Source: Enterobacteria phage VT2phi_272
Sequence record: NC_028656.1
Reading direction: 5' to 3' (one strand)
Length of the DNA stretch: 64,000 bases
Below are positions 15,001 to 21,000 of the stretch, one piece after another. How positions within the stretch are numbered: the first letter of the stretch is position 1; the number at the start of each line of letters is the position of its first letter. Made by a program: the position numbers.

Positions 15001-18000
15001 AAATTGATATTCATCGCAGGAGAAGACAGAGCCAGTTGTTTCTGTTCCCATAGCTGTTTTTCCATGCGATCGAATTCAGCAATATAGGCTTCCTTGAATG
15101 CAGCTGCTTTTTTACCAGTGAAGCCCATCACCAGGAAGACGAATCCGTTTTTGGTGATTTGGTACATTGGGCGTTGTTCGCCTTTGGCGTCGGTGTAGGT
15201 AACGTCCTCAAAATTGAGGGCGTTAAATTTCTCTGAGCATTCAATATTTGCAATGGCACGTAATACGTTATCGTGTCGCTTGCAAAAATATTCGGCAACG
15301 GCAAAGGACGTAGTAACAGCGCGGCCATTGGAAATGGTGATTTCAGGTTGAGAAAGGACTGGGATAGTAGCCATAATGGCAGCCTCCTTGATTGGTGATT
15401 AATAACCACCGCAGGAGGTGAGAAGCTCGCTGGCGGTGGACTGTACAGGGTTCTCACAACTGGCAATCAAGGGAACCAGCCCGACCGAAGTCGGCCCCAT
15501 ACAGCCCACCATTGATAAGATGTGCGTGTATGTCGATACAAAAAAAGACGCTGGCGCGTCTGTATCGCCTCGATTGTCAGCGGGGTGAGAATCCCGACAC
15601 CCGTTTTATAAGGTGTTCGCCCAATATAGCCCCGGCATCACACGCAGTCAATACCGTCCTTTCTCGGAAATGCTTTGGCGATGTGGCAGGTGGGAGACCC
15701 ATTTCGACCCGATTCGGCCTACTTATCTTCAGCAATAGTCCCTCGGGCCTCGCCGCTTTACGTGCGACATATTCCCGTCCATGAACCCTTCACCACACCC
15801 CAAAACATTCCCTGTATTGGTCAGCGCCAACTTCCTGCCAGTGTTGCCCGTTCTCACGCCGTTCTCGCTCTCGCGCGGGGATACTCTCTCATCGACCGGA
15901 TCGCACCCGATGATACAGCACGTTTACGTGTAGGGGTCTAAACAGGTCATTGACGCTGTAAAGCTCCAGATTGTTAAAGAGCATTTTGCGGCGGGTTAAG
16001 TCGCGCCGTACGACTGATTTATGTAGCCCTGTGTAAGGGCGCGATGTTTCTGGCTTGAAATAAATATAACTTGCGGTTATTTTCATGTAAATACCGTCGG
16101 TGCTTTTTTAAGGACGAGAAATTATTACTTAACTGATTTTTAAAGTGATTTATTTTTTAAGGGGACAGATAACAGGAGGGGATATGCAAAGAAAAACCCG
16201 GCGCATGGGCCGGGCTATTTATCTGGTCCTGTTCTCATTCAGTAGAGTAGGGGCCAAGAAATCGCACTCCGTTGAAGTGAATAAGATGAGAAGGTGCATC
16301 AGCCACCCATACCTCTGTTTCCCATGCGATTTCACCAAGATATCGCCCCATGATGGAGCGATTTGGAAAAGCGGTCACATAGACAAGTCCGGCTGTTGAT
16401 CCGGCAAACAGCCTGGCAAGCTCAGCATGCCGCTTCCCATCAACCGGTCCATGACTGGTGACAGACTCAACCAGTAGCAGCCAGTTTTTCGCAGTAAAAT
16501 GTAGCACCACATCTGGCATTTTACCGTGTGAATCCACATCAACACCTAGCCCGGCCAGCAGTGGAGCGTCGAAGTAGCCCCACTTTTCGCCAGTGTCGCC
16601 AGCATAGACCAGCACGCTACCCGGAGCAAAACGTGGGGCGAAGTCCTCTATTATGGCACGGATAAGTTCGCTGTGCTCGCCGGGACTGAGGGTTATTTGC
16701 TGGCCCGCAGCAATTTCAACAGGGATACGATTCTGTTCGCGCTCCTTAGCATAGCGGGTAACCAGCGTTTCACGCTCGGCTAAATAGGTTGCAAGGCTAT
16801 CGTGCCATGCCGGGCTGCCGAAAGTGCGTAGCATGGACAGAGCAGCAGGTTCGATCTGATAAACAGCCTTCGGGCTGTTCACTGGGCGATCGGGCTTGTC
16901 CGGATTGTAGAGGGCTACTCCAGCAGCGCAGAACTGATGCATAGACTGGCGGCGGAATGTCTCACGAGTATTGGGTGCGTAGACCTTGCCGTAGTGCTCC
17001 CGAACCCAATTCATGATTGGTGTAATGCCCACAAGCGGATTTTCCGCGTCGGCCCATGCTTTTCCCGGTGTGAGGTTCAGGAGTGCCAGCAAACACAAAG
17101 CAGAACGCTCATTCTGCTGCGCTCTGGGCAGGCCTAAGGATGCTATAATTTGCTGAGCGGCCTCAATATAATCATTTTGGTTGTTCATGCAGTCAGAGCT
17201 CCTAGCTTAGCGTCAATATGTTCTTGCGTGAGAGTTTCTTGTTGCATAGCCCACTTGCCAAGCTCTATCAGAGTGTCACGGCTTGGGTACTTAATCATCT
17301 TGAGGTCGGTTGCATTGACCTGTGTATGCCCGTTGAAGCGACGGAAATACTTATCCACTGCGGTAGTGTTCAGGAACACGGCCAAGCCACGGGCCAGCGC
17401 CTCGGGTAACCCATGTTTGTTCTCATGAAACACGTTCATGTGATTTTCAAATCCCAACACTGAATACTCACTGAAGGTAGCAGGATCAACGACGCTTGCT
17501 ACCACTCGGCGCTTTTCCTCCTTCGACGAGAAACGACGCACCACACAATAAAAACCGTTCGGGTAAAGCCACTTTTCTGTCTCGTCGTTGCGCATGATTG
17601 CGTTGGGTTTCTTCAAACCTTCCACAGGCCAGACAGTGCTACTCATACTCAAATGGCTCGGGTAGATCAGGGGAACAGTTCCTTCTTCTGGCATGCTGCG
17701 CAAATGAGCTTTCAGTCGGAAATCAACTATCGGTCCGGTCGATACCTTCACGCCAATATCAGCCAGCGAACATTGTACGGCAGATGATAACTCAATGGTG
17801 CTTTTCTCGAGCGTGGTCGGCACATGAATAAACCGCTCCGAATCGTCCGGGTACACAATCTGGTCAAATGGGTGTTCGTAGGTGACCAGGTCAAAAAAGC
17901 TATCATCGGTCGAAGTTGTGACTGTAACAGCCTCCTGACGGCCTCCACGCTCCAGGCGGATGATAATATTTTCCTGCAACACATCGTCATCCCTGAAAGC

Positions 18001-21000
18001 TTTGCTACGTGATTCGAACAAATGAATATGGCGGATTGCTGCCCGCTCAAGTATGAAATTACGGAACGGACGGTAATACGGTCCGTTGCAGAAACTACGT
18101 GGGATTATGGCCACTATCTGCCCGCCAGGTGCAACCTCACCTACAGCCAGTGCAACAAAGGCGGAATACAGATTTACCGTCTCGATACCGACAGTGCGAA
18201 GAGCCTGCCGGTGGGCTGACTGGCTATTGATCTTCTTGTAAGGCGGATTAAGTATTGCATGGGTATAACCTCGATCCTGTAGACCTTCGGCGGTTGCCAG
18301 CTCAATATAATCCCCTTCGATGATGCGGGGCGTCACTCTCCTGTACCCGGTTAAGTGCTTCGCAAGGTGACCACACAGCTTTTTGTCGATTTCGTAGGCT
18401 GTTGCCTCGACAGACTCAAAGCCAAACTCGCCAACCAGCCAACGGTCGAGGAAGGCGCAAGACAGTGCGCCTAAACCAGCGCCTGCGTCCAGTAGACGGC
18501 AAGTTTTCATTGTGCTCGGTGGAAACAAGGAGGCCATAAAACGGGCCACGCCAGAAGGCGTCATGAACTGGCCGAACTCTGCTTTGTGTTTACGCGCGGT
18601 ACGGGGAGACAGCTCGCGACGCACGCTGTCTGCGACGTCTAGCTTTTGAAGCATAACTAATCCTCTTTACGTGGCATGATGATGCCAACGTGCTTTTGAC
18701 ATCCTCCACATTCTTCAGGCGTGAAGGATGTCAAATCACTCTGTGAGCTCAATCAAAAGTCTCATCATTCCACTGCGATTTGATGACCTTTCCGACAAAC
18801 TGGCAGTTTTCGTTACACTCAATCATGTCGAATCGTGGGTTGAGCGGCTCCAGGTACGCTTTACCGCTCTCACGAATGAATCGTTTGAAGGTAAATTCAT
18901 CGCCGTTCATTCGGGCCACGCAAAAATCGCCATCCTCGATTTCCCGTTCAGGGTCAACGAGTATCAGCATACCTTCAGGGAAGCTGGGTTTACCACCCTG
19001 CGGTGCGGTCATTGAATGCCCCTTGACCTCCAGCCAGAACGACCTGTCACTGGCTTTTGTGGTGGTGGAGATCCATTTAATCGCATCTTTTGCGGTGTAC
19101 GAAATATCATCCATTGAGAATGCGCCAGCTTGTACGCAGGAGAGTAACGGATATTCGTAAGCGGGGACACGAGTTAATGGCTCTTCAATTGCGAGCGCCA
19201 TTTCTGCAATAGATTTTGCCAGGCTGGGACTGAAATCTCCGACCTTTACATTCAGTATCTTAGCAAGCTGTGCTGCGTGGCTGGCATTTATGGCGTTGAT
19301 GCCAGCCATTAGCTGATTAACAGCGCTTTGGGTAACACCTAATTCATAGGCTAATGATTCCTGCGACAGGCCTAACTCTTTCTTTTTAGCGTTAAAAATA
19401 CTTTTCAGACGCTTGGCGTCTTCCAGTTGCTCAGGGGTTAACGGTTTCTTTTTCATGTTCATACCATATCACCTTTGGTTATATGTAATGAAATATCTGC
19501 GGTGTTGACATTTTAATAACTGTGCGTAATGATATGGGCATTTTGAAGGAGTCAGTTATGGCGATGAAAAAAGAGACCCTGGCTGATTACGTATACAGGT
19601 TCGGCCAAAAGAAAGCCGCTAAGGACTTTGGCGTGGCGCAGAGTGCAATCAGTAAAGCGCTTCTCGTCGGACGAGAAATATACGTCAAAACCTTTGATGA
19701 CGGCACAGTTGAGGCGGAAGAGGTTCGTCCGTTCCCTGCGTTCGTAAGAGGCGATGATTAATCCTGGACACACAGCCCATCGGAGGTGTGAGTGAACAGG
19801 CAAATCAAAACGGTTATGCCCGAGCAGTACTGTGATGCTGATCGGGACTGGATACAGGAGCAATTGTTACAGCTAGACCCGACCACCCGGGTAAAAATTG
19901 CAGCAGAGTACGCGAGAGTGTACCAGGAAGAGTGGGACAAGGAGCCTGTATCGTTCAGGAAGGGCAACAGGGCAAGACGGAGCGCCAACACCCGGTTACG
20001 GGTGTATGTCCAGAAGTACGCGAGAGCCAGCCGTGGCTGGATGCTTTCGCCAGTAGCGGTACGGAAGTTTCCCCCGACACCATGATGGCGGTTAGTTGCG
20101 CTAGAAATAATTTCACATGCAACTAATTTCCTGAAAGGAAGCGAGGAGGGGGTAAGGGGGTGGAGTCGTTGGTAAGGCCTGTATCCCTTGGCCTAGGCCA
20201 GAAGGCAGGTACATAGGTTAGGTAGATCACTGTATAAGCGCGCGATAGTTCCTGGTGAAATAATTATCGAGCTAACTATTGAGTGATAAACTATGTCAGC
20301 AGCAACCAAATCGGCACTGATCCGTACACTGAGCACTGTACCACTGAGAACAGAGGAGCGTTACAGCTTTCTGGCTGATGTCGTAACGATCCTTGAGTCA
20401 CAGGGGATGCATGTGGCAAGCAATGTCACAGTAAGAATCGATGGCAGAAATTTCCGTGTTGATATTCTCGCAACAGCAAAAACTGGTGGGAGTGTGGCTA
20501 TCGAGATCGATCGTAGCTCTCCGCGACCCCGCTCAGTCATGAAATTGCGTGAATTGGCACGTCGTGGCACTGAAGGCTTTGTGTTGCTTCGAATGCCAAA
20601 GAAACTGACCAGTTATAGCGATGCTGGGATCGATATCATCCCGGCGAATGGCAAGGGGGCGTCATGCTGAAAATCACCCCAAACTTTGCTCAGGAGCGCG
20701 GTTTAAACCAGCTGCGGCACCAGTGGAAACAGCATCGCACGTACCTGATGTATGCACCCACTGGCTCTGGCAAAACTGGTCTTGCAGCATTCGTCACTGC
20801 CGGAATGGTTGAACGTGGTATGCGGGTGATGTTTGTCTGTCCGTACACCATCCTGCTGAACCAGACAGCGGAACGTTTCACCGAATACGGTTTGCCGTGG
20901 GAAGAAATCAGTTTTGTATGGCGTGATCACCCTAACTATGACCCGTCACGACTGATTCAGATTGCCAGTGCCGACACGCTGATCCGTCGTGAGTTTCCTG

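Follow-up and report, generated by a model that had tools for sequence, protein, structure and literature searches.

Which restriction-modification (R-M) system stands beside the repressor gene cI of Enterobacteria phage VT2phi_272, and from which transcript are its genes read? The window, i.e. the whole stretch of 64,000 nt of sequence record NC_028656.1 that was analysed, carries next to cI a gene for a DNA methyltransferase (M) and, overlapping with its end, a gene for a restriction endonuclease (R). This pair is almost certainly the EcoGIII Type IIP R-M system, an isoschizomer of PstI and BsuBI, which is carried as accessory cargo of the immunity region and is probably read through from the cI transcript.

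Identity of the pair with EcoGIII

The M, R and cI proteins encoded in the window are 100% identical to their counterparts in E. coli O104:H4 C227-11 and also to those in P13374, the phage of the O104:H4 outbreak, and the pair is therefore the published EcoGIII system. With the stop counted, 490 of 490 alignment columns are identical to C227-11 for M and 318 of 318 for R. On the DNA level, one nucleotide differs in 2,420 bp of M-R sequence, at a third codon position. The rare-codon positions of the REBASE EcoGIII genes are listed in PMC6456624 and all of them are recovered in the window genes (AUA15, CCC21 and AGA22 in R, CUA5 and CCC17 in M). The name EcoGIII was given to the system in strain C227-11 (Fang et al. 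2012, Nat Biotechnol 30:1232, as cited in PMC6602927 and PMC3893438). Nothing in the data contradicts this identity.

According to papers on identical proteins, including PMC6602927 and PMC3893438, EcoGIII both methylates and cleaves CTGCAG. Two O111 lysogens displayed 100% methylation of CTGC(m6A)G, where m6A denotes N6-methyladenine (PMC6602927). An O145 strain with the genes was methylated at 98.8% of these sites versus 0% in a strain without them; it has an R gene that matches the one of C227-11, described as 'biochemically active', with 100% identity (PMC3893438). Published work further describes protection by EcoGIII from lambda-like phages and, for the cloned genes, a reduction of plasmid entry by about 10^4-fold.

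In the window, the corresponding mechanism would be as follows. M.EcoGIII would transfer the methyl group of S-adenosylmethionine (AdoMet) to the adenine N6 in both strands of CTGCAG. R.EcoGIII, with its N-terminal winged-helix recognition domain, would cut CTGCAG sites with unmethylated adenine. Host and prophage DNA of a lysogen would thus be fully methylated, unmodified incoming phage or plasmid DNA would be cut and phage progeny would leave the cell already modified. Methylation, cleavage, restriction and modification of the progeny are all steps that were shown by others for identical proteins. The initial annotation had proposed a Type II R-M system that endows a lysogen with restriction and that recognizes CTGCAG if it is PstI-like. 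Exactly this has been published for the identical proteins, and the checks that the annotation named (a REBASE match, the methylome of a lysogen and a restriction assay) have all been carried out by others with positive results. Hence, the finding is genuine and its function was read correctly, but it concerns a system that others have already described and studied by experiment.

Both open reading frames (ORFs) are located on the minus strand at 16235-18654 next to cI, exactly where they had been annotated, and their pattern is not a product of chance. The first one (17185..18654) encodes M.EcoGIII, a gamma-class N6-adenine DNA methyltransferase of 489 aa, as judged from the ORF, Pfam, PADLOC, the sequence motifs and the identity to C227-11 and P13374. 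Pfam reports a match to the Eco57I methylase domain and PADLOC a full-length match to MTase_II (E 5e-248). For M, NCBIfam yielded sub-threshold matches alone and the PDB sequence search one weak match. The catalytic motif IV is NPPY (residues 136–139) and the AdoMet loop (motif I) is DAGAGLG (residues 56–62). Motif X, GQFMTPSGVARFM, is found ahead of motif I at about residues 28–40. The order of motifs X, I and IV, followed by a C-terminal region of ~350 aa, is the gamma arrangement, and motifs I and IV are too close to each other to accommodate a recognition domain. Thus the class assigned to M in the initial annotation is retained together with NPPY and the GxG core, while the FxGxG motif is not literally present, as the residue leading the core is Asp instead of Phe. 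A Shine-Dalgarno sequence, AAGAGGA, is situated 7 nt ahead of the ATG.

The second ORF (16235..17188) encodes R.EcoGIII, a Type IIP endonuclease of the BsuBI/PstI family with 317 aa. The assignment, which agrees with the PstI/BsuBI-like endonuclease of ~317 aa predicted before, is based on Pfam, PADLOC, the match to SdaI, the catalytic residues and the identity to C227-11. An N-terminal winged helix-turn-helix (HTH) domain is followed by a C-terminal PD...E nuclease domain. Nearly the whole profile is covered both for PF17728, the N-terminal HTH domain (E 1.2e-54, 184.4 bits with a cut-off of 27), and for PF06616, the C-terminal catalytic domain (E 4.6e-61, 205.2 bits with a cut-off of 27). 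The PADLOC REase_II model matches over the full length (E 1.6e-168) and the solved structure of SdaI (pdb entry 2ixs) matches across 308 residues (E 1.2e-77). There is no specific NCBIfam model for R.

An alignment of seven family members (R, SdaI and five plasmid homologues with 24–94% identity) shows that Pro225, Asp226 and Glu241 are invariant. One feature of the active site departs from the canonical pattern: the position of the canonical PD-(D/E)XK lysine is occupied by Thr244 in R and by threonine in most family members, and SdaI has Lys there. The invariant Lys202 is a candidate to stand in for the catalytic lysine, judging from its conservation.

The M stop and the R start share the sequence ATGA (17185..17188, minus strand) and the same 4-nt overlap is found in two plasmid homologues. 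The R start is preceded by AGGAG 10 nt upstream of its ATG, within the coding sequence of M. With M placed first and the R start overlapping with its end, synthesis of R might depend on translation of M. Translational coupling, which had been stated as a fact, is accordingly confirmed as to the overlap and is possible as to the coupling itself. A single PADLOC MTase_II profile of 840 residues (PDLC03359) spans first M (positions 12–510) and then R (531–839), so fused single-chain M-R relatives must exist.

Position and expression of the pair

The cI gene (18749..19462, minus strand) was assigned by its ORF, by Pfam (HTH_3 and Peptidase_S24) and by its identity to the BAA2326/P13374 repressor. 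It is encoded on the strand of M, 94 bp upstream of this gene, and cro is transcribed divergently. The right operators OR3 (19472-19489), OR2 (19493-19509) and OR1 (19516-19531, ATAACTGTGCGTAATG) exactly match the operators footprinted in PMC5977221. The rightward promoter PR (TTGACA-17-AATGAT) was located at 19505-19533 by a promoter scan.

On the other side of the pair, 19 nt past the R stop, there is an intrinsic terminator (16195..16216, minus strand). Its stem of 8 bp contains 6 GC pairs and leads into TTTTCTTT. The terminator, read from 16216 to 16195, would mark the end of a cI-M-R transcription unit. It is also the left edge of the homology to F039, a hetero-immune type, and a terminator-like hairpin is present at the same place in UCPROB-001, which has the same cI with one residue different. 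Further left, the promoter-like site TTTACA-17-TATATT (16063..16091, minus strand) is the best leftward one of the region, with 10 of 12 matches, and resembles a leftward promoter (pL). The perfect palindrome ATAACCGCAAGTTAT is positioned between its hexamers (16066-16080, minus strand) and is a candidate for the left operator OL, on the grounds of its half-sites and of the comparative data. OL and pL of this immunity type were not identified in PMC4587872 and PMC5977221.

If up to one mismatch is allowed, the 64 kb contain four matches to the motif ATAACN5GTTAT versus 1.16 expected. Three of the four are situated inside the pL-like promoter, at OR1 (19516-19530) and overlapping OR3 (19468-19482), the last two between cI and cro. 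The sites OR1 and OR3 that coincide with the motif were footprinted with the identical repressor, and in the published OR3- mutation the half-site ATAAC is replaced by GGAAC (bottom strand), with a ~15-fold loss of affinity. Speaking against the candidate, matching of the whole footprinted operators did not single it out, and better chance matches are found elsewhere in the window. Binding of the repressor at 16066-16080 is thus suggested by the half-site pattern and by the comparison with relatives.

In UCPROB-001, the segment 16070-16213 recurs with 80% identity to the left of different cargo. The operator-like site has the sequence ATAACTTGCGGTGAT in this prophage, and the two promoter hexamers are retained. 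In strain 48, with an F039-type cI whose DNA-binding domain is hetero-immune, the homology to the window ends exactly at 16069. The region that F039 has in common with the window comprises 16216-19160 only, and the motif is missing at both places. In F039, which is hetero-immune, no shared operator emerged clearly from a k-mer search. The segment 16070-16213 co-varies with the specificity of cI.

The order of elements along the minus strand is the promoter PRM of cI, cI, cargo, terminator and OL/pL. This is the arrangement of rexAB and not that of a pL operon. The pair had been described as embedded in the early-left operon. In that case, its expression would be expected after infection or upon induction and not in the lysogenic state. 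It does share the strand of the leftward early genes (kil, bet/exo and Rha) and is situated between these and cI. Genes of that operon lie downstream of pL/OL with no terminator between. Here, however, a strong terminator follows directly after R, and the sole good leftward promoter-like site with its operator-like palindrome is found downstream of this terminator. The OL/pL-like segment 16070-16213 is also present left of the cargo in a homo-immune prophage. Furthermore, uninduced lysogens are methylated to 98.8–100% and restrict incoming DNA, which means that the genes are on in the repressed state. Membership in the early-left operon is thus highly improbable and the annotation had to be abandoned in this point. 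The pair had also been placed where lambda carries N and rex. This holds for the slot between cI and OL, which is equivalent to that of rexAB, and fails for N, a gene that is missing here. Others have described the position in similar terms: a bsuBI system 'at the corresponding region' of missing early regulators in phages of the PA2/PA8 type (Yin et al., PMC4587872) and BsuBI genes that occupy, to the left of cI, the place of rexAB, OL and N in lambda (Chakraborty et al., PMC5977221).

Left of pL, Rfam detects an isrK Hfq-binding RNA (15541-15616) and a C4 antisense RNA (15429-15516), both on the minus strand and above the gathering score. A gene for a Rha-family antirepressor (14727-15374, minus strand) is located just downstream of them, and a second pair of isrK and C4 is present at 3474-3656 (minus strand). 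The ensemble resembles the RNA-controlled antirepressor modules of P1 immI and of the Gifsy-1 IsrK type. It falls within the '~1 kb of non-coding DNA' that PMC5977221 describes on the left side of the R-M genes.

In the lysogen, M and R are most probably read through from the cI transcript that starts at PRM. This is suggested by the leader of M, which comprises only 40 nt and is too short for a promoter, by the lack of a conserved promoter and by the lack of a U-tract after the hairpin that separates cI from the cassette. This hairpin (18695..18735, minus strand) was found in a repeat search between the cI stop and the cassette and has a 15-bp stem and a fold z-score of -3.85. Neither the plasmid cassette nor the prophages with other cargo contain it. 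It was considered as the ancestral terminator of cI and rejected, owing to its absence from these prophages and to the lack of a T-run in PhiR12_3. A smaller hairpin, GGCAT-CATC-ATGCC, is situated in the M leader (18672..18687, minus strand) and is kept in the plasmid by the compensatory change to GGCGT...ACGCC.

Several observations weigh against read-through. The stable hairpin between cI and M could attenuate it. The promoter-like sequence TTGGCA-17-GAGGAT (18688-18660), a weak match and the only one at this place, could start M-R independently. PRM, for which in vitro experiments demonstrated activation via OR2 and repression via OR3, is very weak and yields ~18 repressor molecules per cell, and yet methylation is complete. 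The same points favor an autonomous M-R unit with its own promoter near the cI-M junction and with the hairpin as the end of the cI transcript. On the other hand, the hairpin has no U-tract and is not called a terminator on the minus strand, and the hexamers differ in the plasmid cassette (TCGGCG and GAGGAC). There is only the leader of 40 nt to accommodate such a promoter, and the scan with the promoter consensus gave no more sites than in shuffled sequence. A relaxed scan gave weak candidates only, both for PRM and for a cassette promoter. An autonomous unit is consequently possible, at clearly lower probability, and transcription from PRM through cI into M and R is the preferred interpretation.

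Borders, variation and role of the cassette

The borders of the cassette were deduced by blastn against the E. coli MOBQ plasmid pG5A4Y413, whose M-R DNA is 84% identical over exactly 18695-16227 and has the same ATGA overlap. The mobile cassette (16227..18695, minus strand) thus comprises the 40-nt leader, M, R and 8 nt, in total 2.47 kb. On Pseudomonas and Aeromonas plasmids, the R proteins are 94–95% identical. No small HTH controller of the C-protein kind and no other non-overlapping ORF are present in the cassette (18695-16227). In pG5A4Y413, the cassette follows a gene of the recombinase family, near the class 1 integron integrase gene intI1 (positions 956-3954 of L010). The last ~33 nt of the recombinase gene are homologous to the 40-nt leader in the phage, which may point to an origin of the phage cassette by excision from a recombinase-M-R unit. 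A plasmid-type M-R unit was probably captured into a variable cargo slot.

This slot, located past cI and on its strand, extends between 18735 and about 16213. In UCPROB-001 (L012, positions 298-2418), it is filled by genes for a small transmembrane protein and an SDH-family Clp-fold serine protease, a small ORF and HicAB. Strain 48 has a small ORF and HicAB in it (L013, positions 1513-2387). Compared on the sequence level, the content of the slot is variable among homo-immune phages. A more general model would regard the stretch downstream of cI, from 13 nt past the cI stop (18735) to ~16213, as a swappable slot for defence cargo that is tied to the PRM transcript. According to this model, the R-M genes were captured from a plasmid, their dosage tracks the hair-trigger PRM and OL is located at 16066-16080. 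Taken together, these propositions have about an even chance to be correct. If they are, the dosage of restriction follows the low PRM activity of these phages.

Among 5,426 complete genomes of E. coli, 139 carry the M-R pair, which is chromosomal in every case, and 147 carry the 3' end of cI. An allele with 95.7% identity accompanies the F039-type hybrid cI; its M and R proteins are 97% and 98% identical to those of the window, respectively. Two decayed relatives were found. In ArgO145, an additional C at about 16577 shifts the frame of R just before the PD motif and M is intact. PhiR12_3 has lost 16552-18694, i.e. all of M and two-thirds of R, with a replacement of ~160 bp.

Such variants raise the question whether the pair in the window could itself be a decayed or orphan system with an inactive endonuclease beside a solitary methylase. 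The R gene of the window is intact, though, its catalytic residues are conserved and its product is 100% identical to the C227-11 enzyme reported to be active (PMC3893438). The published activity of the identical protein refutes the orphan reading for this allele, and its probability is practically negligible.

Among the variants examined, none combines loss of M with an intact R, which is what lethality of R in the absence of M would predict. The pattern of loss, either of R alone or of M with most of R, would also suit prophage addiction (post-segregational killing) as the main value of the system. Epigenetic regulation by CTGCAG methylation is a related proposal, given that EcoGIII is reported to affect the expression of ~1,900 genes as well as growth (Fang et al. 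2012, as cited in PMC6602927). Restriction of phages and plasmids, however, was shown directly, and the different roles are not mutually exclusive. It is rather improbable that addiction, epigenetic regulation or both constitute the main value.

The CTGCAG site itself occurs 11 times in the window, versus 15.6 sites expected from composition and 24.5 from a Markov model; the phage is not enriched in its own site. All 11 sites are located to the right, from 22552 to 63379, with none in the left arm, the immunity region and the early replication genes (post-hoc binomial P about 0.008 for the asymmetry at 22552). GCCGGC is absent from the window (15.7 expected from composition, 22.6 from the Markov model), and so are several palindromes containing CTAG. 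This is probably a general oligonucleotide bias of E. coli and not specific to the phage.

Carrier phage and comparison with known systems

The window belongs to a short-tailed lambdoid phage that converts its host to production of Shiga toxin (Stx) 2a, an Oslovirus of the PA8/Stx2a_F765 type. The DNA at 16000-19600 is 100% identical to that of phages PA2, PA8, Stx2a_F765 and phi346 and 99.8% identical to that of P13374. All 96 of the 96 phage records with this segment are Stx-converting phages or Shigella relatives. The first 25 kb of the window are collinear with Stx2a_F765 and PA8, starting at phage position 586.

A second methyltransferase gene, of the MT-A70 type with the motif DPPW, is present at 1637-2269 (minus strand, Pfam E 1.3e-22). 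It is intact and a terminator is found at 2712-2730. The gene is the counterpart of gp5; PA2 has IS629 at this place, and the window is PA8/F765-like. The product gp5, also named M.EcoPA8orf6770P, is reported to form a 16S rRNA methyltransferase with PNB-2 and to raise spontaneous induction (PMC10810198). The 'prophage-encoded rRNA methyltransferase' reported in 2023 for PA2/PA8 was considered as a description of M and discarded, as it concerns gp5. In addition, the window contains three tRNA genes (25228-25476), matches to the small RNAs STnc100 and AsxR (anti-stx2; 26885-27144) and an ALIL pseudoknot (31807-31923). The latter, a frameshift signal of the IS3 family, fits the IS629 copy described for these phages.

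EcoGIII sets the CTGCAG methylome of major lineages of Shiga toxin-producing E. coli, including the O104:H4 clone of the 2011 outbreak. The window adds no new biology to the system and the additions made here are incremental. They are useful for the regulation of Stx prophages and consist of a candidate OL/pL, the borders of the cassette, the variable slot and the R-null and deletion variants.

Compared to EcoGIII of the Stx2a prophage in C227-11, nothing differs in the system itself, which occupies the same spot beside cI. The backbone outside the immunity region, on the other hand, is different and corresponds to the O157-type PA8/F765. The left arm of the window likewise differs from that of P13374.

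The genes of PstI are divergent, whereas those of BsuBI, as here, are arranged in tandem with M ahead of R. R shares PF06616 and PF17728 with the endonucleases of both systems, which originate from Providencia stuartii (PstI) and Bacillus subtilis (BsuBI), and recognition of CTGCAG, m6A modification and the gamma class of the methyltransferase are in accordance with published reports. The comparison with PstI and BsuBI is one of family and published activity. The carrier in the present case is a temperate phage. SdaI (2ixs, CCTGCAGG) has the layout of winged HTH and nuclease domains and the PD...E residues in common with R in an alignment of 308 residues. It differs in its 8-bp recognition sequence and in the Lys at the position of Thr244 of EcoGIII.

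In plasmid M-R cassettes such as that of pG5A4Y413, the genes follow a recombinase-family gene, whereas the phage cassette follows cI and a hairpin. With regard to its position, the cassette is comparable to rexA-rexB of lambda. Both pairs fill the slot that follows cI, are encoded on its strand and precede a terminator and OL/pL, an analogy already drawn in PMC5977221. Like EcoGIII, the rex genes are expressed in lysogens and confer protection against other phages. There is no relation in sequence or mechanism, as rex acts by abortive infection and EcoGIII is an R-M system that cleaves DNA. Moreover, co-transcription with cI is established for rex, whereas for M and R it is deduced from the arrangement of the genes.

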